Shown here in pieces: positions 45,259-63,834 of a stretch of DNA of 64,000 nt (its first letter is position 1; each line of letters opens with the position of its first letter). The notes under the pieces were generated by a model. That model was not told the DNA's origin, did no database searches, and worked only from the letters and a program-made list of their open reading frames with translations. This DNA comes from Bacilli bacterium (GTDB lineage Bacteria > Bacillota_I > Bacilli_A > RF39 > UBA660). The stretch lies in contig JAFYYX010000001.1 of the NCBI GenBank assembly GCA_017548925.1, positions 360,852-424,851 on the forward strand, given 5' to 3'. The position numbers and the translations under genes were made by a program.

Positions 45259-45297
45259 ATTTTAATGTTTTTTTAGGTATATCAATAGAACGTTTGT

Positions 45298-45326: not shown

Positions 45327-45353
45327 ACTTGGCGACAAGTAAGGGGAATTTAT

Positions 45354-46445
45354 ATGGAAAGAAATGAAGTATTAGTTGCCAAAAATACTGATGAGTTAAT
45401 CTCTTACACTAAAACACAACCGAGTGCAAATGAACTTTTTATAAGTTCGGTTACAAATCTAGATAAAATAGATTCTTTTCATAATCTCCAAAATCTTAAA
45501 ATATCCGCTTTTAAAGCTATTGAATTAAATGATGATGCAATAATTGATGGATCAAATATTAAAAAACTTAAAGCATTAAAGACACTATATATTGAAAACG
45601 ATGATCACATTGAAGAGTTATCTTTACCATGCACAATGAATCTAGATACTTTATTTATATCTTCATGTCACATACTTAAATATATTGATAACTTATTTTA
45701 TCAAAATAGATTAAGGACTTTAGTTATATATGATGTACCTAATCTTGATAAAAGTTTTTATAGTAAGTTAATAAGTTTTTTGGATAATTCAAACTTAGAT
45801 AGAGTTATTCTTGATATAAACACTTATACATTATTTACCGATAAAGAACTTGAAAAATTAAAGGAATATCATGTACTATTTGCTGAAAAAATAGGTATAA
45901 AAGATAACTATATTTTTACTCCAAAAATGATGGAAGATTTTCATAGTAAAGTTCTTGAAATTTATAAAAAGGTTCATGATGAATATAAAGATTTATATAA
46001 AATCTTATATGAATATTATGATTATGTAAGAAATACTCATTATGATGAAGAATCCCTTGCTAAAAGACAAAAGTTTACTCTTGAAGGTGGTAAATTTTAT
46101 AAATATGCAAATAGATATAAATCTATTAATTCTTCATATAAAGCTCTAATGAAAAATAATGCTGTTTGTGAAGGTTATGTAAACTTACTTAGATATTTAT
46201 ATAATCTTGAAAATGTTGATTTATATCCAGTATTTTGTAACTATAAAGAATCATCACATGTAGCTGGAAAAGCCTTTATTGATGGTGTTGAAGTATTCTT
46301 TGATCCAGAATTAGATCATAGATTTATGAATCACAATAACTTTATGATAAGTAAAGATGAATTTCAAAGAAATCATGATATCTTATTTTATCGCGATAAT
46401 TTTGATATAATAATAGAAGTAAAGAATAAAGTGAGAAGTAGATAG
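45354..46445 (+). CDS. leucine-rich-repeat protein fused to transglutaminase-like cysteine-protease domain
   Basis: N-terminal LRR-like units (LQNLKISAFKAIEL, LKALKTLYIEND, NLDTLFISSCHILKYIDNL, RLRTLVIYDVPNLD). C-terminal TGase-like core with Cys (NAVCEGYVNLLRYL), His (SSHVAGKAFIDGVEV) and Asp (FFDPELD). No signal peptide. Confidence 0.55.
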   Translation: MERNEVLVAKNTDELISYTKTQPSANELFISSVTNLDKIDSFHNLQNLKISAFKAIELNDDAIIDGSNIKKLKALKTLYIENDDHIEELSLPCTMNLDTLFISSCHILKYIDNLFYQNRLRTLVIYDVPNLDKSFYSKLISFLDNSNLDRVILDINTYTLFTDKELEKLKEYHVLFAEKIGIKDNYIFTPKMMEDFHSKVLEIYKKVHDEYKDLYKILYEYYDYVRNTHYDEESLAKRQKFTLEGGKFYKYANRYKSINSSYKALMKNNAVCEGYVNLLRYLYNLENVDLYPVFCNYKESSHVAGKAFIDGVEVFFDPELDHRFMNHNNFMISKDEFQRNHDILFYRDNFDIIIEVKNKVRSR

Positions 46446-46447
46446 TT

Positions 46448-48052
46448 ATGAAAAGAATATTACAAGAATACTTACAAAATAATCATGGTATTGGAGATAT
46501 TATATTAAATGATACTAGCAAGATTATATCTATACTAGATGATTTAAAAATAGATGCTTTATATAAAAGTAACTTTCATGGTTTATATCACTCTCAAAAG
46601 GTATGTTTATATGCATATATAATTGGTACATGCATGGGTTTAGATGAATCTGAAATGAAAATTATTTTAGATGCAGCTAAGTATCATGATATTGGAAGAG
46701 AAAACGATAATGAAGATACAACTCATGGTTATGCAGCTACTTTAAGAATAGATAAAGTAGTAAATTATTCTAATACAGATGATATATATTATTTAAAAGC
46801 AATTATTGATGCGCATGCAGTTCCTGATAAAGAAATGGATTTAATTTTTAGTAACTGGAATGAAAGAAAACATGATGATGATATTGCTTTAAAAAGGGAA
46901 AATGCTAAAGATCTTGATTTCGAAAAATTCAAAAAATTATGTTCAATATTAAAAGATGCTGATGCCCTTGATAGATTTAGATTTAAAAACTGTCCTGCAG
47001 AACTTGATGAAAACTATTTAAGAACTGATGCAGCTAAAAATAAAAAACTAATAGAAGCAGCTAAAATTATTAATGATCACTACAGGAAAGTTGAAGCTGA
47101 AGAGCAATATAAAAATGCTCAAGGTAAATATAATAAATTCACTTTTGATAAACAAATATGTTATCACAGTGTAGGGTTTGATTTTTTCAAAGCACTAAGT
47201 GTATTAGAACATGGAATATTATCATATTACAGTGCTGAAAAAAATAACATAAAATTATCAAGAAATTTTAATGGAAATAATTCTGACTTTTGGATATCTG
47301 TTGTTGATGCTAACCAACTATTTTCTCAACCAAAAGCCTTTGATAAATATGTAAAAAATGGAATAAGTTTCCTATGTTATGTTGATCAGCTTGTTCCAGG
47401 AGTTAGTAGATCTAAAGATAATGGTTCTTTAGAACCAAGAAATTCTGAATATTGTGATGAAAAATTTGTTTTTGATAAAATTCCACTTGAACATATACAA
47501 TTTATGTTAATTCCTAAAAAATATATGAATACAAGTATTACTGAATTGGAATATTTATACTGTAATTCAAACTATGAAACAATAAAAAATAATGTTAATA
47601 GATATTTAGGTGAGATAGAGCAGTACTGTGATATTAAACTAAATAGAAATAATATTAATAGAGTTTTAAATGAATTATTCCAAGTTCAAACAAATTATAA
47701 TAGTGCTTATTATCATTCTGAATTTGATGAAAAGATGTATTATCTTAAGATTGATCATATGAAAGCTGCACTTAATTTATATATTCAAGAATCAATGCAA
47801 ATTGGTTTTTGTGAACTAATGGAAAAAACAATTGATGAAAAAATCACATTAAAAGAAGTAGTTGAATTTATTCTAAAAAGAAATGGTATTGAATATACTG
47901 AAGTTCAAAGTAATAGTGATAGTGAGAGTTTTTCATCAGCAGATGATATTTTATCATTTGATGATAAAGGTGCATATATGTTAAGACTATCAACCTTTGA
48001 TTTAAATAAAACTATAAGTCTTTCAGATTTAAATCAAACAAGAGGTATTTAA
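46448..48052 (+). CDS. HD-domain phosphohydrolase-like protein with ~350-aa C-terminal domain of unknown function
   Basis: N-terminal H..HD signature (GLYHSQKVCLYAYIIG...AAKYHDIGREND...DADALDRF). Begins 3 nt after the upstream stop. Cytoplasmic. Confidence 0.55.
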   Translation: MKRILQEYLQNNHGIGDIILNDTSKIISILDDLKIDALYKSNFHGLYHSQKVCLYAYIIGTCMGLDESEMKIILDAAKYHDIGRENDNEDTTHGYAATLRIDKVVNYSNTDDIYYLKAIIDAHAVPDKEMDLIFSNWNERKHDDDIALKRENAKDLDFEKFKKLCSILKDADALDRFRFKNCPAELDENYLRTDAAKNKKLIEAAKIINDHYRKVEAEEQYKNAQGKYNKFTFDKQICYHSVGFDFFKALSVLEHGILSYYSAEKNNIKLSRNFNGNNSDFWISVVDANQLFSQPKAFDKYVKNGISFLCYVDQLVPGVSRSKDNGSLEPRNSEYCDEKFVFDKIPLEHIQFMLIPKKYMNTSITELEYLYCNSNYETIKNNVNRYLGEIEQYCDIKLNRNNINRVLNELFQVQTNYNSAYYHSEFDEKMYYLKIDHMKAALNLYIQESMQIGFCELMEKTIDEKITLKEVVEFILKRNGIEYTEVQSNSDSESFSSADDILSFDDKGAYMLRLSTFDLNKTISLSDLNQTRGI

Positions 48053-48080
48053 AAACCAAGATTAAATCTTGGTTTTTTCT
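48052..48080 (+). terminator. rho-independent terminator
   Basis: Stem aaaccaagatt pairs with aatcttggttt, followed by T6. It is followed by TTGATA. Confidence 0.7.
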
Positions 48081-48172
48081 TGATATAAATTAATGTAAAG
48101 TTATTTATAACTTAACATTAATTAATAATTTTATAGTATAATTTAATATAACAAGAAGGAGGAACTTTATTT

Positions 48173-49246
48173 ATGAAAGTAATAGTTTCTGCTGGAGGTA
48201 CAGGAGGACATATTTATCCTGCACTTGCAATAATTGATATGTTAAAAAAAGAATATAAAGATTTGGATATTTTATATATAGGTACTCATAATAGAATGGA
48301 AAAAGATATTATCCCTAAAATGGGTATTAAATATGAAACTTTAAAAATATATGGGGTTAGTAAAAGAATATATCTTAATTTAAAAAACTGTTTTTTAATT
48401 AATGAAGCATTTCATAAATGCCATAAAATAATAAAAGAATTTAAACCTGATTTAGTTATTGGTGCTGGAGGTTACGTAACATATCCGGTAATAAAAACAG
48501 CACAAAGAATGGGTATTAAAACTTTTATTCATGAACAAAATAGTTTTTCTGGTAAAACTAATGTAGCATTAGGTAAAAAAGCGACTTTAGTTGGTGTTTC
48601 ATTTGAAAACTCAGTAAAAGATTATAAAAAATGTAAGGGTAAAGTATTCATAATGGGTAATCCATGTGGAAAAAGAGCTCTTGATATTAAACCAATTAAA
48701 AAATCTGACATAGGGTTTAAAGATAATAAACCACTTGTTGTTGCAGTTGCTGGATCACTTGGTAGCGTAACAATAAACAAATCATTTAAAGAAGTGTTAA
48801 CTTCTTTAAATGATAAAAATTATCAGTTTTTATATATAACTGGTCAAAAATATTATGATGAATTTATTAAGGGTTTAACTTTACCAGATAATGTTAAAGT
48901 AGTACCATATTTTGAAAATTTATCAGGACTACTTAAAAACACAGATGCATTAATTTCAAGATCTGGTGCAAGTACTATGAGTGAAGTAATAGCTTTAAAA
49001 GTACCAACTATCTTTATTCCATCACCATATGTAGCAAATAACCATCAGTACTATAATGCAATTGATTTAGTTAATAAAAAAGCTGCTCTTATGATTGAAG
49101 AAAAAGATTTTAGTAAAGATTTATTACTAAGTAAAATTGATGAGTTATTAAATAATAGTAAAGAAATAAAAAATAACTTAGAAAGTATTTCAGTTGTAGA
49201 TTCTGAAAAAGTATTTATTAGTGAAATAAAGGGGATTTTTAAATGA
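48173..49246 (+). CDS. murG: UDP-GlcNAc:lipid I N-acetylglucosaminyltransferase
   Basis: GGTGGH N-terminal motif (VSAGGTGGHIYPALA), GT28 C-terminal domain. AGGAGG RBS. Confidence 0.85.
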   Translation: MKVIVSAGGTGGHIYPALAIIDMLKKEYKDLDILYIGTHNRMEKDIIPKMGIKYETLKIYGVSKRIYLNLKNCFLINEAFHKCHKIIKEFKPDLVIGAGGYVTYPVIKTAQRMGIKTFIHEQNSFSGKTNVALGKKATLVGVSFENSVKDYKKCKGKVFIMGNPCGKRALDIKPIKKSDIGFKDNKPLVVAVAGSLGSVTINKSFKEVLTSLNDKNYQFLYITGQKYYDEFIKGLTLPDNVKVVPYFENLSGLLKNTDALISRSGASTMSEVIALKVPTIFIPSPYVANNHQYYNAIDLVNKKAALMIEEKDFSKDLLLSKIDELLNNSKEIKNNLESISVVDSEKVFISEIKGIFK

Positions 49247-50130
49247 AAGATGAATTAAGTAAATTTGGAAAAGTAAAAGAAAATGTCGATTTAAAAAATT
49301 ATAATACTTATAAAGTATCAGTTAATGCTAAATATTTAGTAGAAGTAAAAAATGTAGATTCATTAAATGAATTAATTAAATATTTAAAGAAAAATAAAAT
49401 TAAATATTTAATTTTAGGTAATGGATCTAATGTTGTTTTACCTGAAAAAGATTTAGATGGCGTAATTATAAGACTTAATGGTTTAAATAAAATAGAAATA
49501 GATGATGATGAAGTATATGTTGAAGCCGGAGTAATGCTACCTAAACTTGTTAATGAATCAGTAAGTAACTGTTTAGCAGGACTAGAGTGGGCATCTGGTA
49601 TACCAGGTACCGTTGGTGGTGCTGTTGTTGGTAATGCTGGTGCATATTTATCAGATATTTTTTCATTTATTATTGATATTGATGTTTTAGAAAATGGAGA
49701 AGTTAAAACAATTAAGAAAAGTGATGTAACTTATAGTTATAGACATACATCATTTAAAGATAATAAAGACATTATTGTTTTAGCAGTTAGATTAAAACTT
49801 AATAAAGGTAATGCTGATGAATCTCAAGAAATAATGAAAAACAGATTAGAAAGAAGAATTAAATCACAACCACTTAATTATCCAAATGCTGGTAGTGTAT
49901 TTAGAAATCCTGAAGGTGACTATGCTGGTAGATTAATTGAAGAATGTGGACTTAAAGGAAAACGTATTGGTGGCGCAATGGTTTCTGAAAAACATGCAAA
50001 CTTTATAATTAACTATGATAATGCAACAGCAAAAGATATAAGAGACTTAATAAAATTAGTACATGATGAAGTACTTAAAAAGGAAAAAGTAGATTTAATA
50101 ATTGAACAAGAATTAATAGATTGGAGGTAA
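49243..50130 (+). CDS. murB: UDP-N-acetylenolpyruvoylglucosamine reductase
   Basis: FAD-binding N-terminus (ILGNGSNVVL). MurB C-terminal RSQPLNYPNAGSVFRNP and the GGAMVSEKHANFIIN motif. Confidence 0.85.
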   Translation: MKDELSKFGKVKENVDLKNYNTYKVSVNAKYLVEVKNVDSLNELIKYLKKNKIKYLILGNGSNVVLPEKDLDGVIIRLNGLNKIEIDDDEVYVEAGVMLPKLVNESVSNCLAGLEWASGIPGTVGGAVVGNAGAYLSDIFSFIIDIDVLENGEVKTIKKSDVTYSYRHTSFKDNKDIIVLAVRLKLNKGNADESQEIMKNRLERRIKSQPLNYPNAGSVFRNPEGDYAGRLIEECGLKGKRIGGAMVSEKHANFIINYDNATAKDIRDLIKLVHDEVLKKEKVDLIIEQELIDWR

Positions 50131-50136
50131 GTAAAT

Positions 50137-50880
50137 ATGGAAAAGAAAAAATCTAAACGTAAAATAAATATTATTGCATTAATAGTTATTTTACTTTTCT
50201 TGTATTTGGTTTTTTCTTTTATTTATTATGTAATGACACTTCCAATTAAAAATATTTATATAGAAGGAAATACCTATGTTTCTGATGTTGAAATAATTGA
50301 AACGGCTAAAATAAAAAATTATCCTTCACTTATAAAGATAAGTAGAAGAAAAGTTAAGAAAAATCTTCGTAAAAATGAATTTATTAATAGTGTAACTATT
50401 AAGAAAAAATTAAATGGTACTATAAAAATAATAGTTGATGAAAGTAAACCTCTTTTTTATAATCGAACAAATAAAAAATTAGTTTTACTTAATGGAAAAG
50501 AAGTTGATAATAGTTCTTTAAATGATAAAGTACCATCACTTATAAATATCGTTCCAAACGATATTTATAAGAGCTTAATCAAAGCTTTTGAAAAAGTAGA
50601 TTATAATGTAATAACTCAAATAAGTGAAATAGAATATGATCCAGATATTATAAATGGAAAAACCATAGATCCAGATAGATTCTATTTAAGAATGGTTGAT
50701 GGAAATAGTGTTTATATTAATCCAGTAAATATTAAAAGACTTAATAACTATTTTAGTGTTTATGATAGACTTCCTGATGGCGTAAAAGGAACTTTGTATT
50801 TTGATTCAAATAGTAATAATAACATGTTTAAAATGTATGGATCAAAAGAAGCAAGCGAGGTTTTACCAAGTGAAAACTAA
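50137..50880 (+). CDS. divIB: cell-division protein DivIB/FtsQ
   Basis: N-terminal TM. POTRA-like region (IKNIYIEGNTYVSDVEIIE...FINSVTIKKKLNGTIKIIVDE) followed by a beta domain. Position after murB in the dcw order. Confidence 0.6.
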   Translation: MEKKKSKRKINIIALIVILLFLYLVFSFIYYVMTLPIKNIYIEGNTYVSDVEIIETAKIKNYPSLIKISRRKVKKNLRKNEFINSVTIKKKLNGTIKIIVDESKPLFYNRTNKKLVLLNGKEVDNSSLNDKVPSLINIVPNDIYKSLIKAFEKVDYNVITQISEIEYDPDIINGKTIDPDRFYLRMVDGNSVYINPVNIKRLNNYFSVYDRLPDGVKGTLYFDSNSNNNMFKMYGSKEASEVLPSEN

Positions 50881-52555: not shown

Positions 52556-52730
52556 TGCACTAAATATAGTATTATCTATTGTATTTAAGCATATTATTTG
52601 ATAAAATACTATTGGCCTTAAAAAAAGGAAAAAATACACATTAATGGGGATTATTTATATCGAGTGCCAGAATTGGTGTTATAGATGAGGAGATCCATTA
52701 AGCGGAAAAAAACGAAGGAGGATGAAATTT

Positions 52731-53711
52731 ATGGCTGTAGTTTCTATGAGTTATTTATTAGAAGCTGGGGTTCATTTCGGTCATCAAACTAAAAGATGGA
52801 ACCCTAAAATGAAGGAGTATATTTATACTTCTAGAGATGATATTTATATTATCGATTTACAAAAGACACAAGCTTTAATCGAAGAAGCTTATGCAGAAAT
52901 CAAAAGTATCGCAGATAACGGAGGAAGTTTCCTATTTGTTGGTACTAAAAAACAAGCTAGCGAAGTAGCTAAGGAAGAAGCAATAAGATCTGAGTCTTAT
53001 TACGTAACTGAAAGATGGTTAGGTGGTACACTTACAAACTTCAGAACTATCAGAAGTCGTGTTAAGAGAATGGAACAAATTGAAAAAATGGAAGAAGACG
53101 GAAAATTTGACTTACTTCCTAAGAAAGAAGTTATTGGTCTTAAAAAAGAACATGACAAACTAGAAAAAATCTTAGGTGGTATTCGTGAAATGGTTAAACT
53201 TCCTCAAGCAATTATTATTGTTGATCCTAAGAAGGAAGCTAACGCTATCCATGAAGCAAGAAAATTAAATATACCTGTATTTGGTATTGTTGATACAAAC
53301 TGTGATCCAGATGACGTTGACTATGTAATTCCTGGTAATGACGATGCTGTTAGATCAGTAAAAGTTATTCTAGGAGTACTTGCAAATGCTATTTGTGAAT
53401 CTAAAGGTTTAGAAATTGTTGATTATGTAACTGAAGATGAAACTAAAGTTAAAGCTGCTAAAGCAGAAAAAACTGAAGAAGTAAAAGAAGAAAAAGTTGA
53501 AAAGAAAGCTCCTGCTAAAAAAGAAGAAAAAGTAGAAGAAAAAGAAGAAGTTAAAGAAGAAAAACCTGCTAAAAAAGCAGCTGTTAAAAAGGAAGAAAAA
53601 GAAGATTTATCTTCTAAAACTTTAACTGAACTTAAAGCTATCGCTAAAGAAAAAGGCGTTAAAGGTTACTCAACAATGAAAAAAGACGAACTTGTAAAAG
53701 TTCTTGGATAA
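52731..53711 (+). CDS. rpsB: 30S ribosomal protein S2 with C-terminal KE-rich/Rho-N-like extension
   Basis: [27 protein letters not shown]... is canonical S2 through about residue 245. It is then followed by [19 protein letters not shown]... and a terminal [37 protein letters not shown] 52731 sits 9 nt after GAAGGAGG. Confidence 0.9.
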
Positions 53712-53734: not shown

Positions 53735-54619
53735 ATGGAAATAACTGCTAGTATGGTTAAAGAATTACGTGAAGCAACAGGCGCTGGAATGATGGATTGT
53801 AAAAAAGCCCTAAGCGAATGTAATGGAAATATGGATGAAGCTGCAAACTGGCTTCGTGAAAAAGGTATTGCTAAATCAGCAAAAAAAGAATCAAGAATTG
53901 CTGCTGAAGGACTTGCAAATATCTATATTGAAGGAAATAAAGCTGTTATTTTAGAAGTTAACTCTGAAACAGACTTCGTTTCTAAAAATGAAGAATTTAA
54001 AGCAATGATCGATGAAATTGGTAATGCTATATTAAAAGGTTCTGCTAAAACAATGGATGAAGCATTAGCTTTACCATCTGCTGAAGGAACTGTTCAAGAT
54101 TTAATCGTTGCAAAAGTTGCAAAGATTGGTGAGAAGTTATCATTTAGAAGATTTGAAGTAGTTGAAAAAACTGATGCAGATAACTTTGGAGCATACTTAC
54201 ATATGGGTGGAAAAATTGCAGTTTTAGTTGTTGTTGAAGGAGCTACTGAAGAAGTAGCTAAAGATGTTGCAATGCAAGCTGCTGCTATGAAACCTAAATA
54301 TGTATTTGTAGAAGATGTACCAGCTGACGTTTTAGAAGAAGAAAAGAAAGTATTAAAAGAACAAGCTATGAATGAAGGTAAACCTGCAGAAATAGCTGAA
54401 AAAATGGTTGCTGGTAGAATTAATAAATTCTATAAAGAAATTTGTTTAACTAAACAAGCATTCATCAAAGATGGTGACATCGATGTTGAAACTTATGTTA
54501 AAAACAATAAAGGTTCTATTAAATCTATGGTACGTTACGAAGTAGGCGAAGGAATGCAAAAAAGAGAAGACAACTTTGCTGAAGAAGTAATGAACCAAGT
54601 TAACGGAACTAATGAATAA
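53735..54619 (+). CDS. tsf: elongation factor Ts
   Basis: UBA-like N-terminus ITASMVKELREATGAGMMDCKKAL with a dimerisation core. Confidence 0.9.
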   Translation: MEITASMVKELREATGAGMMDCKKALSECNGNMDEAANWLREKGIAKSAKKESRIAAEGLANIYIEGNKAVILEVNSETDFVSKNEEFKAMIDEIGNAILKGSAKTMDEALALPSAEGTVQDLIVAKVAKIGEKLSFRRFEVVEKTDADNFGAYLHMGGKIAVLVVVEGATEEVAKDVAMQAAAMKPKYVFVEDVPADVLEEEKKVLKEQAMNEGKPAEIAEKMVAGRINKFYKEICLTKQAFIKDGDIDVETYVKNNKGSIKSMVRYEVGEGMQKREDNFAEEVMNQVNGTNE

Positions 54620-54625
54620 ATAAAT

Positions 54626-54656
54626 TAAGCACTTTACAATAAAAGTGCTTTTTTAT
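54626..54656 (+). terminator. rho-independent terminator after tsf
   Basis: Stem aagcacttt pairs with aaagtgctt, followed by T6. Confidence 0.7.
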
Positions 54657-54706
54657 TTGTTATTAATAGTACTTATAATCTATAATTAAACTAGGGTGAG
54701 ATGCTA

Positions 54707-55708
54707 ATGAAACTATTTACATCATATACATTTTTACTTAAAAATATGGTTGATGATTTAAATAAAAAGTTTGATGATGCAAGCGAAATATTTGATCAAT
54801 TTAATGATGGAGGTTTTGTAAGCGTATTATTTATATTATTAGTATTATTTATTGTTCAGATTATAATAGTTACAATATTTAATTATAGTAAAAGAAGAGA
54901 AATCTCATTAGAAAAAAAATTAAGAACTAAAAATACTTCAAGTGAAATTCCTTGTAAGGGTGATTTATATATTACATATTTTATTGCATCTAAATGTAAC
55001 CTTGCTGATTATCTTTCACTTAAAGGAAATTTAATTTCATCATTTTATTTAAAATGGCTTAAAAAAGGCTTATTAAAAATAGATAAATCTGATGCTAAAG
55101 ACAAACAAGCAATTCTTTATTTTGATGACAAAGCTGCAAATTGTATTGATGATGAAGTAGAAGCTGAATTATATACCATTACAAAAAATGTTTTAGATGC
55201 AAGTGGAGCAAATTATTTTAAAGCTGATGATTTAGTAAGTTATATGACTAATAATAATGAAGATGTAATTAACTTTTTTGAACATGCATATTATAAAGGT
55301 AAAAAAAGAGTTTATGCTGCTATAACACCAGTATCAGAAAAAGTTACAAGAGTTGATAATCGCATCTTAACTGAATACATGTTAGAACTAAAAAAACAAA
55401 TTGTTGAATTTATTAACTTTATTAATAAAGTAGATATCTTAGATAACTATGAATTCGAATCAGTAAAAGTATGGGATAATTACTACATATTTGCTAATTT
55501 ACTTGGACTTAGAGATAAGATTAAAGATGGTAGATTTAAAGATAAAGTTAATCCAAATTTAATCAAGTTAAAATATACAAGAACATTTGAAAATATTGAT
55601 AACATTGTTCATGTTAATGTTTTATGTAGTGAAAAAGAATATAAAAATAATAAAAGAAAAATTATTAAATCAAAACGTAATTATGAAAAAGAAACTAATA
55701 ATAATTAA
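54707..55708 (+). CDS. membrane-anchored protein of unknown function (island paralogue A)
   Basis: N-terminal TM (FVSVLFILLVLFIVQIIIVTIF). Shares conserved blocks with the next gene (PCKGDLYITYFIASKCNLADYLSLKGNLISSFYLKWLKKGLLK and LELKKQIVEF). GGGTGAG SD. Confidence 0.5.
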   Translation: MKLFTSYTFLLKNMVDDLNKKFDDASEIFDQFNDGGFVSVLFILLVLFIVQIIIVTIFNYSKRREISLEKKLRTKNTSSEIPCKGDLYITYFIASKCNLADYLSLKGNLISSFYLKWLKKGLLKIDKSDAKDKQAILYFDDKAANCIDDEVEAELYTITKNVLDASGANYFKADDLVSYMTNNNEDVINFFEHAYYKGKKRVYAAITPVSEKVTRVDNRILTEYMLELKKQIVEFINFINKVDILDNYEFESVKVWDNYYIFANLLGLRDKIKDGRFKDKVNPNLIKLKYTRTFENIDNIVHVNVLCSEKEYKNNKRKIIKSKRNYEKETNNN

Positions 55709-55725
55709 AAATGGTGGTGTATAAG

Positions 55726-56700
55726 ATGTACATTTTGGGTAAATTAAATGAACTTGATAAAGTATCAGAATTTATGAATTTTATAAAAGATCATAAAGGA
55801 TTAATTATATTTATATTTATGGCAGTACTTATTCTAGTAATTGTTTATTATATATTTATAATGTTTACTGATAAAACTAAAGAAAATACTAATATAGTAG
55901 ATGAAAATACTGAAACAAAAGAGTATTTGAAAGATGTACCATGTAAGGGAGATTTGTTTATTACATATTTTGTTTTATCTAAAAGTAATTTAATAGATTA
56001 TTTAACAGTTAAAGGTAATTTTATTTCTTCTATATATTTATCATGGATAAAAAAAGGACTTATCAAAACCAAGTCTATAGATAAGGGAGATAATCAATTA
56101 AATCTTTATTTTGATAACACAAATATAACTGCTATAGATAGTGAGATAGAGAAAAAATTATATGAATCAATAAAAAATGGTATTACAGTAAATCAAACAG
56201 GTGTATTTAAACTAGATGAATTAGTTAAATCATTAGTTAGTAGTAATCAAATAATCGTTAACTTCTTAAAAGAATCTTATGAAGAAGGTAAGAAAAGAAT
56301 TATCAAAACGCTTACTAATTCTTATGAATTAAATGAAGATTATAATGTTGAACCTTGCGTCCAAGAACTAAAAAAACAAATAGTATCATTTCAAAATTAT
56401 TTAATTAATTTTGCAAATGGTCCAGAAAATGAATCTGCATCAGTTTATGTACTTGATAATTATTATGAGTTTTCAAAATTTTTAGATATTCATGAAAATA
56501 TTAAAAATACATGGATTAGTAATAAGGTAAATGCTGACATGGTTAAAGTTGCTTGCACTGATTTATTTAGTAATATTAATGAATATGCACACACAAATAA
56601 TTTGTATTCTGATACCGAACTTAAAAAACATAAAAAAGCCATAAAAAAATCAGAAAAAGCATTTAATAATGTTCAAAAGAAAGAATTTTTTCATGCTTAA
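55726..56700 (+). CDS. membrane-anchored protein of unknown function (island paralogue B)
   Basis: N-terminal TM (GLIIFIFMAVLILVIVYYIFIMF). Blocks PCKGDLFITYFVLSKSNLIDYLTVKGNFISSIYLSWIKKGLIK and QELKKQIVSF. GGTGGTG SD 6 nt upstream. Confidence 0.5.
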   Translation: MYILGKLNELDKVSEFMNFIKDHKGLIIFIFMAVLILVIVYYIFIMFTDKTKENTNIVDENTETKEYLKDVPCKGDLFITYFVLSKSNLIDYLTVKGNFISSIYLSWIKKGLIKTKSIDKGDNQLNLYFDNTNITAIDSEIEKKLYESIKNGITVNQTGVFKLDELVKSLVSSNQIIVNFLKESYEEGKKRIIKTLTNSYELNEDYNVEPCVQELKKQIVSFQNYLINFANGPENESASVYVLDNYYEFSKFLDIHENIKNTWISNKVNADMVKVACTDLFSNINEYAHTNNLYSDTELKKHKKAIKKSEKAFNNVQKKEFFHA

Positions 56701-56705
56701 TAAAT

Positions 56706-56736
56706 TAGACACTTTAAAAGTAAAGTGTCTTTTTGT
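56706..56736 (+). terminator. rho-independent terminator
   Basis: Stem agacacttta pairs with taaagtgtct, followed by T4. This is a weak T-run, so read-through is likely. Confidence 0.55.
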
Positions 56737-56789
56737 TTCTTTATTTAAATATAGATAAATAGTATAATATTATGTAAGGTGAAATTTAT

Positions 56790-57365
56790 ATGAAAAAATT
56801 GCTTAAATTTATTATATTTATTTTATTAATTATTTTATTTATATATTTTGGAACTAAAGAATATAAAAGTAATTATAAGAAAGACGTTGAAGGAAAAAAT
56901 GCTAGTAGCACTTTACTAAGTGGTGATTATGTTTTTGTTGGATTAAATCATTCAAAAGTATTAAATAAATTATCAACTAAGAATAGTTCAATTATTTATG
57001 CTTGTATTGATGGAAATAAATTATGCGTTAAATATGGTTTTTTAATTGATGAAGTAGCAAAATCTTATGGAATAGATACAGTATATTATTATGATATTAA
57101 AGAAGATAGACAAAACAATAATGGAACATATCAAAAGATTGTTAATAAATTAAAATCTTATGCAATAACTGATGATACAGGTAAACAAAACTTATATGCA
57201 CCAACTTTAATTTTTATTAAAAATGGAGATATATATGCTTTTGATGATTCACTATCTATAGTTCATGGAAATAAAGATATTGATGAATTATGGAATGAAG
57301 AATTAGTTAATGCTAAAAAAGCTTATCTAACTGAAGTAATGGAAGGATATATTAGTAATGAATAG
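56790..57365 (+). CDS. membrane-anchored protein with possible thioredoxin-like fold
   Basis: N-terminal TM/signal. A cis-Pro-like APTLIFIKNGDIYAF block resembles thioredoxin vPTlllFknGe. The upstream Cys pair is CIDGNKLC (CX5C) rather than CXXC. Confidence 0.45.
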   Translation: MKKLLKFIIFILLIILFIYFGTKEYKSNYKKDVEGKNASSTLLSGDYVFVGLNHSKVLNKLSTKNSSIIYACIDGNKLCVKYGFLIDEVAKSYGIDTVYYYDIKEDRQNNNGTYQKIVNKLKSYAITDDTGKQNLYAPTLIFIKNGDIYAFDDSLSIVHGNKDIDELWNEELVNAKKAYLTEVMEGYISNE

Positions 57366-58128
57366 ATACCTTGAAAGAAAAAAAGATTTTATCGGGGGAA
57401 TTACATTTATTATTTTTGTTGCTGTTTTAATTGTTGGAGGATTCTTCTTAACAAGATATCTAACAAGTGAAAAAGAACATAAAAAAGTTGTTCAAAGTGA
57501 AATAGATAAACTTAAAATTGATTCTAAAAAAGATTTAGTATACTATGAAAATGAAATTATACTATCTCCAGATCCAGATATTATTCATAAGGATATCATT
57601 ATTAATTTAAAAGAAGCAGATACAGTTAATGAACTTTTAAAAAAATCAATGGATAATATTAGAAATAGTGTTAAGAAAAAAGGCGAAGTAGAAATTGATT
57701 CAAGTAAAGAATTACTATATGATATTGATATTATTTCTACAAAAGAAAGAAACTATACCGTATATGAATCTTTAAAATATTTAAGTGTTCTTGTTACAGA
57801 TAGTGATTTTACTTGTTATAATGGTAGCACTATAACAAGTCAAACAGCATATACATTTAGTTTATCAACAGGTAAAAGATTATCAAATGATACTTTAATT
57901 GGTTATGCTGGTTTATCAATTGATGATATAAAAAATAAAGTTAGAAATAAACTTGAAGAAGATCAAAAAGATTTACATGATGGTGAAACCATAAATATTG
58001 ATGAGACAATTAATTTAATTAACATAAAAGATTTAGTTATTTATACTAATAAAACTGGTAAGATTGTTATATCTTTTGTTGTAAAAACTAATGATGATAG
58101 TTATAATGATACTATAGAACTTAATTAA
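57358..58128 (+). CDS. membrane-anchored protein of unknown function
   Basis: Overlaps the upstream gene by 8 nt. One N-terminal TM (FIGGITFIIFVAVLIVGGFFL), then about 220 aa extracytoplasmic. Confidence 0.45.
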   Translation: MNRYLERKKDFIGGITFIIFVAVLIVGGFFLTRYLTSEKEHKKVVQSEIDKLKIDSKKDLVYYENEIILSPDPDIIHKDIIINLKEADTVNELLKKSMDNIRNSVKKKGEVEIDSSKELLYDIDIISTKERNYTVYESLKYLSVLVTDSDFTCYNGSTITSQTAYTFSLSTGKRLSNDTLIGYAGLSIDDIKNKVRNKLEEDQKDLHDGETINIDETINLINIKDLVIYTNKTGKIVISFVVKTNDDSYNDTIELN

Positions 58129-58142
58129 AGGAGGTTTTATAT

Positions 58143-58679
58143 ATGGATATTAATGAATATGAACTTAAAATGATGAAAGCCATTGAAACTATGGATTCAA
58201 GACTTTTAAATATTAGAGCGGGTCGTGCAAACCCTGCAATGCTAAATGGTATTCAAGCAGAATACTATGGAACACCAACTCCAATTCAATCACTTGCAAA
58301 TATTACAGTTCCAGAAGCAAGACAATTGTTTATTAAGCCTTTTGATAAATCAGCTTTAAAAGATATTGAAAGAGCAATAAATGAAGCTAACTTAGGTATT
58401 ACACCAACTAATAATGGAGAAATGATTATTTTAACTATTCCAGAACTTAATGAAGAAAGAAGAAGAGAATATGTTAAACAAGCTAAACAAATTGGTGAAG
58501 ATGGAAAAGTTGCAGTAAGAAACGTAAGACAAGATGCTAATAATGATCTTAAAAAACTAGAACTTCCAGAAGATGAAGAAAAACTTTACCAAGAAGATAT
58601 TCAAGAACTTACAAATAAATACAACAAGATTATTGAAGACAAAATTAAAGAAAAAGAAGAAGAACTAATGCAAGTTTAG
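58143..58679 (+). CDS. frr: ribosome recycling factor
   Basis: RLLNIRAGRANPAMLNGIQAEYYGTPTPIQSLANITVPEARQL...VRNVRQDANNDLKKL is canonical RRF. AAAGGAGG RBS. Confidence 0.9.
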   Translation: MDINEYELKMMKAIETMDSRLLNIRAGRANPAMLNGIQAEYYGTPTPIQSLANITVPEARQLFIKPFDKSALKDIERAINEANLGITPTNNGEMIILTIPELNEERRREYVKQAKQIGEDGKVAVRNVRQDANNDLKKLELPEDEEKLYQEDIQELTNKYNKIIEDKIKEKEEELMQV

Positions 58680-58746: not shown

Positions 58747-59331
58747 ATGGATAAGTACTATGCGTTATATTTAGATAAACACGTTGATAGAAAAAATAAA
58801 ACTCAAGTTGAAAATTATAGATTCATTCAACCTAAGTTTAAAATGTGGAACACTGATCATATATATCTTCATATTTTTAGTGGGATAATTATGTGCAAGG
58901 ATGCATTCTTTGTTGGAAACTTACAAAATATTCCACTTATAGTAAGACAAGATGAAAATGGTATTTATGATGCTTACTATGGGGAAAAACTAACAATTAT
59001 TCCACCAATAAAGTTATCTAAAAAAGAAATATCATGTGAATATGTTCAAGATGTATTTACAAGTTTAAATTCAGATTGTCGCAGTAGAGAAAGTTATAAA
59101 TATTCTTTAGCTGAATATAAATTAATAATAGAAGAATATATAACTTTTATATCTAAACTAGATGAAATACATGAAGATCTTAAAAATACACTTTTTATGC
59201 ATAAAACTGATAGTAGTCAATCATTACTAGTTCAAAGTAGTATGCCTAGAAGTGAAAACAATAATCCAAGCATTCTTGTACAATCTTCAATGAGAAATAA
59301 AGATGAAAAAACAAGACAAAGAAGTAAGTAG
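58747..59331 (+). CDS. hypothetical protein with C-terminal peptide repeat (LVQSSM)
   Basis: AAAGGAAGTG RBS. The C-terminus contains LLVQSSMPR...ILVQSSMRN encoded with different codons. Confidence 0.45.
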   Translation: MDKYYALYLDKHVDRKNKTQVENYRFIQPKFKMWNTDHIYLHIFSGIIMCKDAFFVGNLQNIPLIVRQDENGIYDAYYGEKLTIIPPIKLSKKEISCEYVQDVFTSLNSDCRSRESYKYSLAEYKLIIEEYITFISKLDEIHEDLKNTLFMHKTDSSQSLLVQSSMPRSENNNPSILVQSSMRNKDEKTRQRSK

Positions 59332-59353
59332 TTGTCTACTTACTTCTTTTTTC
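59320..59353 (+). terminator. rho-independent terminator
   Basis: Stem gaagtaagtag pairs with ctacttacttc, followed by T6. It is followed by TTGACT. Confidence 0.7.
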
Positions 59354-59406
59354 TTGACTTTAAATATTAATTATAAGTATGATTTTAGTAGAAGAAGGTG
59401 TTTATT

Positions 59407-59874
59407 ATGGAAAATAATGAACAAACATATTGCTATATTAATGTTAAAGAAGTACCAAACTTTTATAATAGTTTCATAAATAGGATTAATAGTAGTAAGT
59501 ATTTAACAGTAGCTAATATTGGTGGACAAAACTGTTTATGTTTTATTATGGATAATCATAATAAAAATGATAAAAGTTTAAACTTTGATTTTGAAAATCA
59601 AGTTTATCCATTTATCTTTTTAAATGATAAATTAAATAAAATGTTTGTAGATATTGTTACAAATAGAGCATATTTTTATAATGCTGTTAATAAAGGTGTT
59701 GGTGACTATATAGAAGAAGTTATACCTTCCGGCATAAATTTATCAAATGAAGATGTTAAAAAATATGTTAATACAATTCCTTTTGTTAGATATAAAGAGA
59801 TTATAGAAGAATTTGAAAAGATTATGAAAGAATCTTATTGTTTAGATATGGGTATAGATAGAGCTAACAGATAG
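59407..59874 (+). CDS. hypothetical protein (YCYIN/PFIF family, copy 1)
   Basis: ATG after GAAGAAGGTG. Shares N-terminal YCYIN and central PFIF...K(M/F) blocks with the next gene. Confidence 0.45.
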   Translation: MENNEQTYCYINVKEVPNFYNSFINRINSSKYLTVANIGGQNCLCFIMDNHNKNDKSLNFDFENQVYPFIFLNDKLNKMFVDIVTNRAYFYNAVNKGVGDYIEEVIPSGINLSNEDVKKYVNTIPFVRYKEIIEEFEKIMKESYCLDMGIDRANR

Positions 59875-59943: not shown

Positions 59944-60504
59944 ATGATTAAAAATAATTGGATTTATTGTTACATAAATATATTTAAACATAAAGATGAT
60001 ACTATAGCATATGAAAAATTAATTGAAGCTATAAAAAATGATGAGCTATTATCTTTATGTGAAGAAGAAATAGAAATTGATGGAAATGTGCAAACAATTA
60101 ACTATTTAGGTTTTAAATCTTATGGTGTTGATTTAGATGATATAACTCCATATAAAGATAAAATAAAATATAGAGTTATTCCATTTATATTTAAGCATGA
60201 TGTAGTAAATAAGAAATTTGCTGATTCTGTATCAGGAGAAATATATAGTTATCATACTTATGATTATAGCGAGAGTGAAAGAAAGTTTTTTGAAGATAAA
60301 GGACAAACTGGTGAATATTTAAATTCAGCATTAATACTTACAAATGAACAAAAATCATCAGTGCTTAATACTATGAGTAATAATGATGTTCAAACTTATA
60401 GAAAAGCTTTAAGAAAACTTGATGCTTTAATAAAACAAGTTTATGGTAATTACTATACGGATATAAGAAAAGAAAAAAGAATTAGAGAAAGAAAACAAAA
60501 TTAA
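59944..60504 (+). CDS. hypothetical protein (YCYIN/PFIF family, copy 2)
   Basis: AAGGAGAAAG RBS. Preceded by TTGACA 17-nt-spaced promoter-like boxes and followed by a terminator. Confidence 0.45.
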   Translation: MIKNNWIYCYINIFKHKDDTIAYEKLIEAIKNDELLSLCEEEIEIDGNVQTINYLGFKSYGVDLDDITPYKDKIKYRVIPFIFKHDVVNKKFADSVSGEIYSYHTYDYSESERKFFEDKGQTGEYLNSALILTNEQKSSVLNTMSNNDVQTYRKALRKLDALIKQVYGNYYTDIRKEKRIRERKQN

Positions 60505-60530: not shown

Positions 60531-60617
60531 TTTTGGAATATGCAAGCATTAATGCATATTGAAAAATTAGCAAAAATATGATAATATAAACACATAGAAA
60601 TAAGGAGAGTGATTGTT

Positions 60618-61172
60618 ATGCCAGTATGGCTAATTGTAGTACTAGCAGTAGTTGCAGTATTAGTTCTATGGATTATTGGTTCATATAATGGATTAGTAAG
60701 ACTAAGAAACAGAGTTAGAGATCAATGGGCACAAATCGATGTTCAACTTAAAAGAAGATTTGATTTAATCCCAAATTTAGTAGAAACAGTAAAAGGATAC
60801 ACTAAACATGAAAGTGAAACTTTAGAAAACGTTGTTAAAGCACGTAACACTTATTTAAGTGCTACTACACCTGAAGCTCAAATGGAAGCTAATGGTGAAC
60901 TTACACAAGCTATTTCTAAATTATTTGCTTTAACTGAAGCTTATCCAGATTTAAAAGCAAATACTAACTTTGTTAAAATGCAAGATGATTTAAAGGAAAC
61001 TGAAGACAAGATTTCTTATGCAAGACAATTTTATAATGATACTGTACTTACATATAATAATAAAGTAGAAGTTATTCCTACAAACATTATTGCTGGTTTA
61101 TTCGGATTTAAGAAAGAAGCATTCTTTGAAGCACAAGGTGCTGAAAGAGAAAACGTTCAAGTTAAATTCTAA
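60618..61172 (+). CDS. lemA: LemA-family membrane protein
   Basis: N-terminal TM, then a LemA core (YNGLVRLRNRVRDQWAQIDVQLKRRFDLIPNLVETVKGY...). ATG 8 nt after AAGGAGAG. Confidence 0.75.
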   Translation: MPVWLIVVLAVVAVLVLWIIGSYNGLVRLRNRVRDQWAQIDVQLKRRFDLIPNLVETVKGYTKHESETLENVVKARNTYLSATTPEAQMEANGELTQAISKLFALTEAYPDLKANTNFVKMQDDLKETEDKISYARQFYNDTVLTYNNKVEVIPTNIIAGLFGFKKEAFFEAQGAERENVQVKF

Positions 61173-61222: not shown

Positions 61223-63157
61223 ATGAAAAAACTATTATTAATAATTTTCTCTTTTTTTATTTTTCCAGTGCTTACATTTGCCGTTGATAATGTAGATTAT
61301 GATGTAGAACATTATTATATTAAAGCAAATATTTTAAGTAATGGAGATTTAAAAGTAAAAGAATTAATAGTTCTAGATGGTTCATTTAATGGTTATGAAA
61401 GAACTATCAATTATAGAAATAGTGCGCTTAATAGTTATAGTGATATAGATTTTGAACACTCTGCAATTTATAATTCAGATGGTATTAAAAATGTAACTAT
61501 TAAAGCAAAATATTTAAATAATGTATCATTTAATAATATTGATGACTTAGATTATGAATCATTTACAGAAGTAGATTTTGCATATAAAGGTGATAAAAGA
61601 AAATATACTTTAAATGAAGGTTATGATGGTAATACATATAGAATGTATTATGAATCAAGAAGAAATACTGTAGGTTTTTTAATTGAGTATACTTTAGATA
61701 ATGCTGTTGTAATGCATGAAGATGTTGCAGAACTTTACTGGCAAATCTTTACTGCATCATCAGATAATGATGCTTATAAAGATTTAAAAGTAAAAGTATA
61801 TCTTCCAGGTGAAGATGATACAGATACTTTTAGATTCTGGGCTCATGGTCCACTTTCTGGTGAAATTAATCCTATAAATGGTGTAATTAATTATAAAGGT
61901 GCTGTTGCAACTATTGATAAACTTGCAGGTGATGAAGATCTTGATATCAGAATGACTTTTGATAAAGATTTAATTACAGATGATTATGAACTTGATCATA
62001 CATATGTTGATGGTTTAGATAGCATTATTGAAGTAGAAGAAAAAAGAGCTGAAGAAGCTAATAATGAAAGAAAAAGATTAAAAAGAATTTACAACTTTTA
62101 TAAAACAGGTTCTCAAGTAATAACTGTTTTAATAGTTATAGCTCATATAATAATTAAATTTATTATTTTAAGAAAACCTAAAGTTGATTTTGATGCCGAG
62201 TATTATAGAGAGTTTATTGATGATTATAATGTTGAAGTTATTGATTACTTATTTAAGAAGAATTTAACTCCTAATGCTTTATCAGCAGCAATTATGAATT
62301 TAATTTATAGAAAGAAAGTAACTGCTGAAGAATTAGTAGATACAAATGCAAAAAAAGAATCAAAGAAAAAAGATTACACATTTACTATTGTTGATAGAGA
62401 TGATTTAAATGAATCTGATACTAAATTAGTTGAATTCTTATTTGATAGAGTTGGAGATGGAACAACATTTACAACTAAGGGATTAAAAAAATATGCATCT
62501 AGTTTATCAACAGGAAGTAAGTTTAATAACAGTTATACTAATTGGAGTAAATCTGTTATAAATGAAGGTAAGAAACAAAACTTCTTTAAAGGTAAAGGTG
62601 CAGCATATGCAATTGCTATTCCACTTTTAGTTATTAGTATCATATTCCAGTTTACTGGAACAGGACAAGGTGTTAATTATCCGCTATTATTCTTTATAGG
62701 TTTCTTTGGTGTAATGCTTGTTATTATGACAGCAAAACAAAAAGCTTATAATGAAAAAGGTGCACTACACTACAAAAAATGGAATGCATTTAAAAACTTC
62801 TTAAAAGACTTTGGTGATTTCTCACCAAAAGAACTTCCAGAAGTAAAATTATGGGAAAGATATTTAGTATATGCTACTATCTTTGGACTTGCTAAAAAAT
62901 TACAAAATGATATGAATGTAAAAATTAAAGAATTTGATGATTCTATCCAAGGAACATATTCTGATACATTTACACATTTATATTTATATGATTCTATTAG
63001 AAACTCATTTTCTACAGCAGTTTCTGATGGTAAACGTGCTTACGCAGCATCAAGAGCTAACGCTTATTCTTCATCATCATCTGGTGGCGGATTCGGTGGA
63101 GGCTTCTCTGGAGGAGGAGGCTTCGGCGGCGGCGGTGGCGGAGGTCACGGATTCTAA
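61223..63157 (+). CDS. DUF2207-type membrane protein (LemA-associated), Gly-rich C-terminus
   Basis: Signal peptide, large N-terminal extracytoplasmic domain, two TM regions, and a C-terminal SSSSSGGGFGGGFSGGGGFGGGGGGGHGF tail. Classic pairing downstream of lemA. GAAGGAGG RBS. Confidence 0.65.
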   Translation: MKKLLLIIFSFFIFPVLTFAVDNVDYDVEHYYIKANILSNGDLKVKELIVLDGSFNGYERTINYRNSALNSYSDIDFEHSAIYNSDGIKNVTIKAKYLNNVSFNNIDDLDYESFTEVDFAYKGDKRKYTLNEGYDGNTYRMYYESRRNTVGFLIEYTLDNAVVMHEDVAELYWQIFTASSDNDAYKDLKVKVYLPGEDDTDTFRFWAHGPLSGEINPINGVINYKGAVATIDKLAGDEDLDIRMTFDKDLITDDYELDHTYVDGLDSIIEVEEKRAEEANNERKRLKRIYNFYKTGSQVITVLIVIAHIIIKFIILRKPKVDFDAEYYREFIDDYNVEVIDYLFKKNLTPNALSAAIMNLIYRKKVTAEELVDTNAKKESKKKDYTFTIVDRDDLNESDTKLVEFLFDRVGDGTTFTTKGLKKYASSLSTGSKFNNSYTNWSKSVINEGKKQNFFKGKGAAYAIAIPLLVISIIFQFTGTGQGVNYPLLFFIGFFGVMLVIMTAKQKAYNEKGALHYKKWNAFKNFLKDFGDFSPKELPEVKLWERYLVYATIFGLAKKLQNDMNVKIKEFDDSIQGTYSDTFTHLYLYDSIRNSFSTAVSDGKRAYAASRANAYSSSSSGGGFGGGFSGGGGFGGGGGGGHGF

Positions 63158-63261: not shown

Positions 63262-63834
63262 GTGAAGTATGATTTTTTTAAAGACTTTAATCATAAGCAT
63301 GCACTAGATATTTATCATCTTTATTCAGAACTATTTAAGGGAGTAAGATTTATTCCTAATACTTATTATGTAGTAAATGAATCAACTGATAAAAATGGTC
63401 AAGTAAATGGATATATATGTGTTAATATTAAAGACCCAAATGATAATAAAAATATTATAAAATTTTATATTGGGGTATTTAAACAATATCCAACTAGTTA
63501 TCATGTTCATAATATATATTTTATATATAATAATGAATATTTTGTTATATCTAATATTCATTTTGAAAATGATGGCTTATCATATAAGTGTGAATGTTTT
63601 GATGATATAAAATTAAAAAATGTATGTGAAAGTAAAAACACTAATTTACCAAAACCAGAAGATTTTGCCGAACTTAAAGTAGAAGCAAATATCGAAAATA
63701 ATGAAAATATACCACATTATTTTAGAGGAAATATAATTAGTTATATTACTGAAAAGTATTATTTTGAAAAAGATATTAAAACAGTAAGAGAATTACTAGA
63801 AGATAAAAACGAACCTAGAAGGGTTAGAGCGTAG
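63262..63834 (+). CDS. hypothetical protein (GTG start), Cys-containing, unknown function
   Basis: GTG start 7 nt after GAGG. No TM; several Cys (YICVNIK, YKCECFDD, NVCESK). Confidence 0.4.
   Translation: MKYDFFKDFNHKHALDIYHLYSELFKGVRFIPNTYYVVNESTDKNGQVNGYICVNIKDPNDNKNIIKFYIGVFKQYPTSYHVHNIYFIYNNEYFVISNIHFENDGLSYKCECFDDIKLKNVCESKNTNLPKPEDFAELKVEANIENNENIPHYFRGNIISYITEKYYFEKDIKTVRELLEDKNEPRRVRA

Follow-up and report, generated by a model that had tools for sequence, protein, structure and literature searches.

The canonical bacterial gene string rpsB–tsf–pyrH–frr(–uppS–cdsA–rseP) places pyrH between tsf and frr, and a locus in which other genes stand there raises the question of how they came to do so. 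Such a locus lies in a 64,000-nucleotide (nt) stretch from a Bacilli bacterium (contig JAFYYX010000001.1, positions 360,852 to 424,851 of the forward strand; this whole stretch is hereafter referred to as the window), in which four co-directional open reading frames (ORFs), g1 to g4, each with an N-terminal membrane anchor, occupy the interval between tsf, which ends at 54619, and frr, which starts at 58143. A first-pass annotation of the window interpreted the four genes as a lineage-specific envelope module that had displaced pyrH, at a position typical for accessory or defence-type cargo. Here we report a computational analysis of the window and of related loci from gut bacteria. The ORF map, hydrophobicity and Pfam assignments confirm the gene layout as first described. 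However, the interval probably combines two transcription units that differ in age, rather than being an inserted island: g3 and g4 form an old, fixed arrangement with frr, and g1 and g2 occupy a variable slot between tsf and g3. An interrupted 'universal' gene string does not by itself point to insertion; here, the interruption reflects an old clade-wide rearrangement together with a small variable slot.

Conservation of the g3–g4–frr trio

Contigs of relatives (designated L001, L002 and so on) were gathered in three ways: by exact-protein look-up, from GTDB species genomes and from metagenomes. The GTDB species genomes yielded four loci, from an 'uncultured Tenericutes bacterium' metagenome-assembled genome (MAG), two ruminant 'Bacilli bacterium' MAGs and one Muribaculaceae-labelled contig. 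The metagenomes yielded 52 loci, mostly from human gut, in a scan whose profile comprised a four-sequence g4 sub-clade, broad g4 alignments being too diverse. The source samples of all loci are ruminant or human gut.

Maps made with tblastn revealed the g3–g4–frr trio in all 61 related loci that cover this region (among L001–L016 and the metagenome loci), across a range in which Frr identity extends from 98% to 68% and g4 identity falls to about 30%. In these 61 loci, the junction between g3 and g4 ranges from −20 to +9 nt, and the gap between g4 and frr is 1–14 nt in 59. The trio is also kept beside other upstream genes: the order is mutS–g3–g4–frr in L016 and uppS–DUF308–SpoVS–g3–g4–frr in L057, and L011 has the L057-type order with a recombinase between SpoVS and g3. 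These maps show that g3–g4–frr is an old, fixed operon arrangement in a clade of very low-GC (guanine–cytosine), small-genome gut Bacilli, some MAGs of which are labelled 'Tenericutes'. Throughout the sampled family, g3 and g4 thus hold the same position, without assigned functions, and g1 and g2 are found in the closest relatives only. The mutS-containing contig (CAZYXO010000025.1) encodes Bacilli-type proteins, and the MAG that includes it is labelled 'uncultured Muribaculaceae bacterium', probably through a binning error.

Two predicted transcription units

The window is very AT-rich (25% GC; 0.251). The features from rpsB to the first strong terminator downstream of frr are as follows.

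52722..53711 (+): rpsB, ribosomal protein S2 with a C-terminal Rho_N-like extension (Pfam Ribosomal_S2, 4.7e-98; Rho_N, 3.2e-10, amino acids (aa) 295–325)
53735..54619 (+): tsf, elongation factor Ts, closing the rpsB–tsf unit (Pfam EF_TS, 1.1e-72; L005 copy 97% identical)
54627..54658 (+): intrinsic-terminator-like hairpin with a 9-base pair (bp) stem and a T-run, 3′ of tsf (terminator scan)
54657..54686 (+): promoter-like site TTGTTA-18-TATAAT, 5′ of g1 (consensus match only, 10/12)
54701..55708 (+): g1, 335 aa, one transmembrane (TM) helix at aa 42–60 and a C-terminal domain of ~270 aa (ORF map)
55711..56700 (+): g2, 329 aa, tandem paralogue of g1 (ORF map)
56707..56738 (+): intrinsic-terminator-like hairpin with a 10-bp stem and a T-run, 3′ of g2 (terminator scan)
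56744..56773 (+): promoter-like site TTTAAA-18-TATTAT, overlapping a TATAAT at ~56764–56769, 5′ of g3 (consensus match only)
56790..57365 (+): g3, 191 aa, N-terminal TM anchor and predicted extracytoplasmic thioredoxin-fold domain (ORF map)
57358..58128 (+): g4, 256 aa, 10-aa cytoplasmic tail, TM helix and predicted RsiV-like DUF4163/DUF3298-fold ectodomain
58143..58679 (+): frr, ribosome recycling factor, 14 nt 3′ of g4 (Pfam RRF, 8.1e-60)
58747–59331 (+): lineage-specific ORF, 194 aa (41% identity in L005)
59318–59349 (+): strong terminator after the 194-aa ORF (terminator scan)

The terminator first annotated after tsf is present as a hairpin with a T-run (54627–54650), and it is 79% similar to the one after g2 (56707–56730; repeat family D5); a promoter-like site comes next after each. 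Terminator-like sites number seven in the examined stretch, against 1.2 expected from shuffles. Promoter-like sites show no enrichment over shuffles in this AT-rich DNA, and are therefore taken only as consistent with the unit model. The scan detected no terminator-like site in the 14-nt gap between g4 and frr, and the strong terminator at 59318–59349 is likely the end of the unit that contains them. The predicted units are rpsB–tsf, g1–g2 and g3–g4–frr–(194-aa ORF). The ORFs of g3 and g4 share the 8-nt overlap originally reported, and the gene 5′ of frr abuts it, as pyrH does elsewhere, so that co-transcription is likely; frr is probably co-transcribed with g3 and g4. An Rfam scan of the intergenic regions gave no match at E ≤ 0.1.

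Each of the four proteins has exactly one hydrophobic segment, near its N terminus. The ratios of non-synonymous to synonymous substitution rates (dN/dS) relative to the L005 orthologues are 0.26 for g1, 0.36 for g2, 0.25 for g3 and 0.079 for g4, with 0.074 for tsf and 0.029 for frr. All four values show purifying selection, and g1–g4 are therefore real genes rather than chance ORFs. The most conserved of them, g4, is constrained as strongly as a translation factor. A public MAG labelled 'Bacilli bacterium' matches the window, with locus tags IKX00_02265 to 02280; its gene call for g1 begins two codons later than the ORF used here. The same sequence has also been assembled as a scaffold of ~1.03 Mb (ERZ28654058 scaffold_1) from ruminant gut metagenomes.

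A variable slot between tsf and g3

The distance between tsf and g3 spans 99–2810 nt across the loci. The slot is empty in L009, L010, L013 and L014, all of which have g3–g4, and contains g1 and g2 in the window and in L005–L008. In L001 and L002, an unrelated 339-aa protein is accompanied there by a g1 orthologue; L015 has a 493-aa dockerin-type protein, and human-gut lineages have proteins of 215, 256–271, 509 and 514 aa. The gap is a variable slot that has repeatedly gained lineage-specific membrane or secreted proteins, and g1–g2 is its present occupant in near relatives.

As first proposed, g1 and g2 are tandem paralogues (38% identity over 294 aa, E = 2e-57), g2 being the fastest-evolving of the four genes (59% identity to its L005 orthologue, at the dN/dS of 0.36). 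Both match Pfam DUF2207_C (PF20990) at scores (18.4 bits for g1 and 14.4 bits for g2) below the gathering threshold of 33 bits, and this sub-threshold match recurs in 13 of 13 members of the g1/g2 family (best E = 2.9e-6). In an hhalign comparison, the family profile aligned with a bona fide DUF2207 protein (L001 5754–7595, PF09972 and PF20990) at 97.1% probability (E = 5e-11, 197 columns) over DUF2207 residues 301–521, which include the IPC-x-GD motif, and BLASTP of the family against the DUF2207 protein gave E = 4e-9 over ~280 aa. Residues 237–299 of g1 also align with residues 523–586 of the full-length DUF2207 protein of the window. No match to PF09972, the N-terminal extracellular DUF2207 domain, was found in g1 or g2, and each has a single hydrophobic segment, so the full-length architecture is absent. 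These alignments identify g1 and g2 as truncated DUF2207 relatives that correspond to the middle portion of those proteins and retain the first TM helix with the domain behind it. There are no Lys or Arg residues before the g1 helix and six after it, and the large domain is therefore predicted to be cytoplasmic (N-out, C-in); g2 is ambiguous in this respect. Downstream of frr, the window contains the following related pair.

60609–61172 (+): LemA (Pfam LemA, 7.9e-62)
61223–63157 (+): full-length DUF2207 protein (Pfam DUF2207, 4.8e-17; DUF2207_C, 1.6e-44)

On the grounds of homology and proximity, g1 and g2 may have arisen from the DUF2207 genes clustered just downstream, and they would probably act with the LemA/DUF2207 envelope-stress proteins. 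The sole phenotypic or functional study of a DUF2207 protein that we found concerns Streptococcus mutans SMU.243, the mutant of which has lower acid and oxidative stress tolerance and forms less biofilm (PMC10457818). A 410-aa protein with DUF2207_C only is encoded ~1.3 kb beyond the right-hand end of the window (L071 11213–12445), and its counterparts occur in L009 and L010 (405 aa); LemA, the full-length DUF2207 gene, g1, g2 and the 410-aa gene make up a local expansion of the DUF2207 family around frr.

g3 has a predicted thioredoxin fold without CxxC

The structure model of g3 (predicted local distance difference test (pLDDT) score of 79) shows a membrane-anchored protein with a predicted extracytoplasmic thioredoxin fold. 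The segment P138-T139-L140 is invariant in 24 sequences, with AP(S/T)L in distant clades, and corresponds to the cis-Pro loop position, the cis state being assigned from sequence. The active-site position is occupied by N76-K-L-C79, in which Asn76 is invariant; there is no CxxC motif, and an additional cysteine, Cys72, lies upstream. Cys72 and Cys79 (C-x6-C) are at least 90% conserved in the sub-clade of the window and are confined to it. In other clades, the active-site position reads NEWV, SKQS, NEYS or NSYV and is cysteine-less, and the g3 orthologues in L011, L015, L016, L019, L023, L030 and L052 have no cysteine in the active-site region and keep the operon. Thus, of the thioredoxin-like cis-Pro block and atypical cysteine pair first noted in g3, the former holds throughout and the latter is a feature of one sub-clade. 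With CxxC missing, and no cysteine at all in this region in most lineages, g3 is very unlikely to be an oxidoreductase.

What is conserved instead is a signature, YYYD-x3-DR-x2-NN-x-TYQ plus AP(T/S)L, which would lie around the usual substrate-binding face, and g3 reads as a candidate non-redox binding module. A Pfam scan of g3 and its homologues returned no thioredoxin-family match, and PDB profile searches with g3 and g4 gave noise only. A weak profile alignment places N76-K-L-C79 of g3 opposite the CDLC of PedC-like proteins encoded near frr in L011. Membership of g3 in the PedC-like family was rejected, as hhalign gave probabilities of only 27% and 5.5%, and is kept as a resemblance. In L011, two PedC-like (PF20207) genes, one with CDLC, follow frr (8040–8561 (+) and 9084–9620 (−)) and flank a SpoU methylase gene; thioredoxin-fold genes recur around frr in the clade of L011, which is the most distant.

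g4 has a predicted RsiV-like ectodomain

The AlphaFold2 model of g4, calculated with 36 homologues (pLDDT 87.5), shows an ectodomain with a predicted DUF4163/DUF3298 fold similar to that described for RsiV (PMC5014341). The TM core of g4 starts at residue 11, and only MNRYLERKKD precedes it; near the C terminus, Y249-N250-D251 is invariant. No Sigma70 domain is encoded beside g3–g4 in any locus with a Pfam gene table, and the neighbours of g4 are g3 and frr in 61 of 61 loci. Given this 10-residue tail and the lack of an adjacent sigma factor gene, g4 is RsiV-like in its ectodomain and not an anti-sigma factor. Pfam DUF3298 and DUF4163 matched none of 19 g4-family proteins, nor any of 10 weak or atypical matches from the exhaustive search. 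In a HMMER search of 1.84 billion representatives, we identified 149 g4-family clusters (50% identity clusters) at E ≤ 1e-3; the full-length members are nearly all ~220–270 aa and matched over almost their whole length, and the others are mostly fragments. Together, g3 and g4 represent two uncurated protein families, without Pfam models and with known folds, in a conserved operon with frr.

Absence of pyrH from the locus

The PyrH queries were Bacillus subtilis and Escherichia coli sequences validated against TIGR02075 (342 and 345 bits, cut-off 243.9). With these two queries, tblastn gave no match at E ≤ 1 in the window and 72 related loci (723 kb, 73 sequences). This confirms the reported absence of pyrH from the window, and the empty six-frame search rules out a pyrH hidden in another frame of the interval. 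Moreover, no AA_kinase domain was called in 83 kb around the locus, including 10 kb past each window end. Thus, the whole clade lacks pyrH at this locus. That it was 'displaced' is unproven, the sequence covering ~8% of this genome. It probably left the tsf–frr locus in the ancestor of the clade. The string is rearranged elsewhere as well: as first observed, cdsA–rseP lie at 15975–17834, 40 kb upstream (Pfam), and uppS–cdsA do not follow frr; uppS is found upstream of g3 in one sub-clade (L057).

Alternative explanations

The proposal that the four genes entered the tsf–frr interval as a single accessory or defence-type island, pushing pyrH out, draws on the restriction of the genes to this lineage (14, 35 and 55 homologues among 5.8 billion proteins), the missing pyrH and the lineage-dependent content of the tsf–g3 slot. 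Against it stand the terminator that separates two units, the fixed g3–g4–frr trio in 61 loci, and the loci L009, L010, L013 and L014, which have g3–g4 without g1 or g2. The hallmarks of cargo are also missing: none of g1–g4 matches a family at threshold in Pfam, NCBIfam, PADLOC or PHROG (nothing below E = 0.049 in PADLOC, none in PHROGs), and BLAST against a phage collection (DNA of the whole interval; g1 protein) and a plasmid collection (g4 protein) gave no match. The GC contents of g1–g4 (0.217–0.228; the window as a whole has 0.251, and another lineage-specific gene has 0.255) resemble those of other lineage-specific genes of the window, with rpsB, tsf and frr being higher. There is no tRNA gene at the locus, no border repeat beyond the similar terminator pair (D5), and no integrase or other recombinase in the window locus; only L011 has one, upstream of g3. 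These negatives, with that from Rfam, and the synteny together exclude a recent mobile insertion, and we regard the island as highly improbable. The annotation of a lineage-specific envelope module in the pyrH slot is thus borne out as regards lineage-restricted envelope proteins at this place, and not as one four-gene module, which the terminator and the separate histories of the pairs divide. Likewise, the statement that none of the proteins has a recognisable catalytic family stands, although relatives or folds exist for all of them (DUF2207 central domain, thioredoxin fold and RsiV-like DUF4163/DUF3298 fold). A different possibility is that pyrH is truly gone from these ~1-Mb genomes, with UMP phosphorylated by another kinase and g3–g4 marking the scar. 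The tblastn and AA_kinase negatives and the small genome (scaffold of 1.03 Mb) would fit this. However, only ~8% of the genome was inspected, the remaining sequences all coming from the corresponding locus of relatives; UMP kinase is an essential enzyme that nearly all bacteria possess, minimal Mollicutes included; and the locus is otherwise rearranged, as the positions of cdsA–rseP and uppS show. Outright loss is, therefore, exceedingly unlikely.

Two further proposals concern the functions of g3 and g4. If g3 were a StoA/ResA/PedC-type extracytoplasmic thiol–disulfide oxidoreductase, acting through Cys72/Cys79 on g4 or other envelope proteins, this would account for the predicted thioredoxin fold with its invariant cis-Pro, the conservation of both cysteines in the sub-clade of the window, the conserved Cys153 of g4 in the same sub-clade, and the weak PedC-like profile match, in which Cys79 is aligned with the second cysteine of CDLC. 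It would not account for the absent CxxC with an invariant Asn76 at the first-cysteine position, for the cysteine-less orthologues of seven loci that keep the operon, or for the low hhalign values to PedC-like proteins, and we consider it very improbable. Alternatively, g4, partnered by g3 and anchored at the membrane surface, might act as a lysozyme receptor or decoy of the RsiV type that works without a sigma factor, and would block the active-site cleft of host C-type lysozyme and provide constitutive tolerance; this proposal, which narrows down the functional side of the composite reading and is compatible with it, is unlikely. All source samples come from ruminant or human gut, which is a lysozyme-rich habitat, and purifying selection on g4 is strong. 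By itself, the RsiV ectodomain binds lysozyme at the active site and inhibits it 1:1, and membrane-bound lysozyme inhibitors of Gram-positive bacteria have perhaps been overlooked, according to the authors of that study (PMC5014341). By contrast, g4 shares only 15% identity with RsiV, its family has no DUF3298/DUF4163 Pfam match, the RsiV contact residues S169, P259 and Y261 could not be mapped onto g4, and the thioredoxin-fold partner is left unexplained; moreover, the fold is widespread, and most of its members (3cyg, 4e72, 3s5t and the PdaC N-terminal domain) are without a known lysozyme link. In its boldest form, g3–g4 would be a dedicated, constitutive, membrane-anchored lysozyme-binding or lysozyme-inhibiting complex, an RsiV ectodomain freed from sigma signalling and joined by a cysteine-less thioredoxin partner, fixed beside frr across the clade. 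We hold this to be quite unlikely, given how widespread the fold is and that these contact residues are unmapped in g4. If true, no stand-alone proteinaceous lysozyme inhibitor system would have been described in Gram-positive bacteria before g3–g4; a long-standing open question is touched only in that case or if pyrH has really been lost.

The composite reading

The interpretation of the interval as two transcription units of different age, which we consider probable as a whole, has the following functional outline. Both g3 and g4 would be made together in roughly equal amounts and would probably assemble, on the external side of the membrane, into a complex that binds without catalysing. Their position directly upstream of frr may tie their expression to that essential, growth-linked gene. 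In this interpretation, g1–g2 is a recent tandem pair that stems from local duplication of a DUF2207-type gene. Several points weigh against parts of this interpretation. The proposed co-transcription is predicted from consensus scans and gene spacing, and promoter-like sites lie within g4 (58019–58107), so frr could also own a promoter. Identity between g1/g2 and the neighbouring DUF2207 genes is only 22–25%; therefore, either the duplication was not recent or divergence was fast. The taxonomic extent corresponds to the retrievable contigs, with sister lineages that lack g3–g4 outside the sample, and the departure of pyrH is accordingly undated. On balance, the locus is an ordinary, if locally unusual, outcome of clade-level rearrangement and gene-family expansion, and the g3–g4–frr trio provides a practical synteny marker for the clade.

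Other features of the genome

A C-terminal Rho_N domain (SAP-like, PF07498) is present on both S2 (window 53604–53711, RpsB aa 295–329) and L20 (L072 2310–2867). The S2 extension is also called in L005 and L009, and fusions of ribosomal proteins with Rho N-terminal-type domains are unusual. Endospore genes occur despite the ~1.03-Mb single scaffold, which, if its size holds, represents a very small genome for a spore former: a gerA/gerB/gerC-like operon was read by eye at window 19977–22979 (−), and spoIIGA (Peptidase_U4), two sporulation-type sigma factors and SirA are encoded just upstream (L072 5371–7668 and 15050–15460).

Among the small ORFs after frr, those at window 59398–59874 (158 aa) and 59944–60504 (186 aa) are distant paralogues (25% identity, E = 8e-7) without a family match. 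A single paralogous family comprising all of these ORFs was rejected, as only these two are related; the 194-aa ORF and a 190-aa ORF at 63262–63834 are unrelated, fast-evolving orphans (41% and 56% identity in L005, against 98% for Frr). Inspection by eye also revealed a tandem duplicate of a two-gene cassette (window 35978–36946 with 36939–37373, and 37485–38441 with 38419–38877), each copy consisting of an Xre-like helix–turn–helix protein with a TM segment (322 and 318 aa, with near-identical N termini) and an overlapping small multi-TM protein (144 and 152 aa). The region at 40898–50880 reads, by eye, as a pbp–mraY–ftsW–...–murG–murB–ftsQ-like cell-division and cell-wall cluster, in which two unrelated genes, of 363 and 534 aa, lie between ftsW and murG; the 534-aa protein has an HD domain in L005. 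Reading by eye turned up no murE, murF or murD anywhere in the window, making this another rearranged 'stable' locus.

Comparison with known systems

Comparison of g1 and g2 with DUF2207 proteins (PF09972 and PF20990) indicates homology to the segment after the first TM helix, with the IPC-x-GD and W-x-x-Y-x-x-F-A-x-L-L-G motifs, whereas the N-terminal DUF2207 ectodomain, the C-terminal TM pair and the Gly-rich tail are lacking. DUF2207 proteins are usually paired with LemA, and the LemA–DUF2207 pair of the window lies 2 kb downstream.

The known thioredoxin-fold systems nearest to g3 are Firmicutes proteins: BrxA/YphP (7RZB), the bacteriocin transport accessory protein (1ZMA), the PedC-like proteins (PF20207), and the membrane-anchored StoA and ResA. 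Unlike these, g3 lacks the CxxC motif and has a conserved signature instead, which points to binding over redox chemistry. The predicted ectodomain fold of g4 is shared with RsiV, the B. subtilis anti-sigma-V factor and lysozyme receptor (PDB 5JEN). However, RsiV has a sigma-binding cytoplasmic domain and a sigV neighbour, and g4 has neither; unlike RsiV, g4 is always paired with a thioredoxin-fold gene and frr. Other likenesses of its ectodomain are found in 3CYG, 4E72, 3S5T and the N-terminal region of PdaC.

Compared with the canonical rpsB–tsf–pyrH–frr(–uppS–cdsA–rseP) string, the window keeps rpsB–tsf and frr in their usual order and orientation, with g3–g4 in place of pyrH and without uppS–cdsA after frr. 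Given their tight linkage to frr and the tsf-like constraint on g4, g3 and g4 are reasonable candidates for a core function of the envelope in a gut lineage that is uncultured, forms spores and has a small genome. In the canonical string it is pyrH that abuts frr, and here it is g4; g3–g4 are bound to this essential gene as tightly as pyrH is elsewhere.

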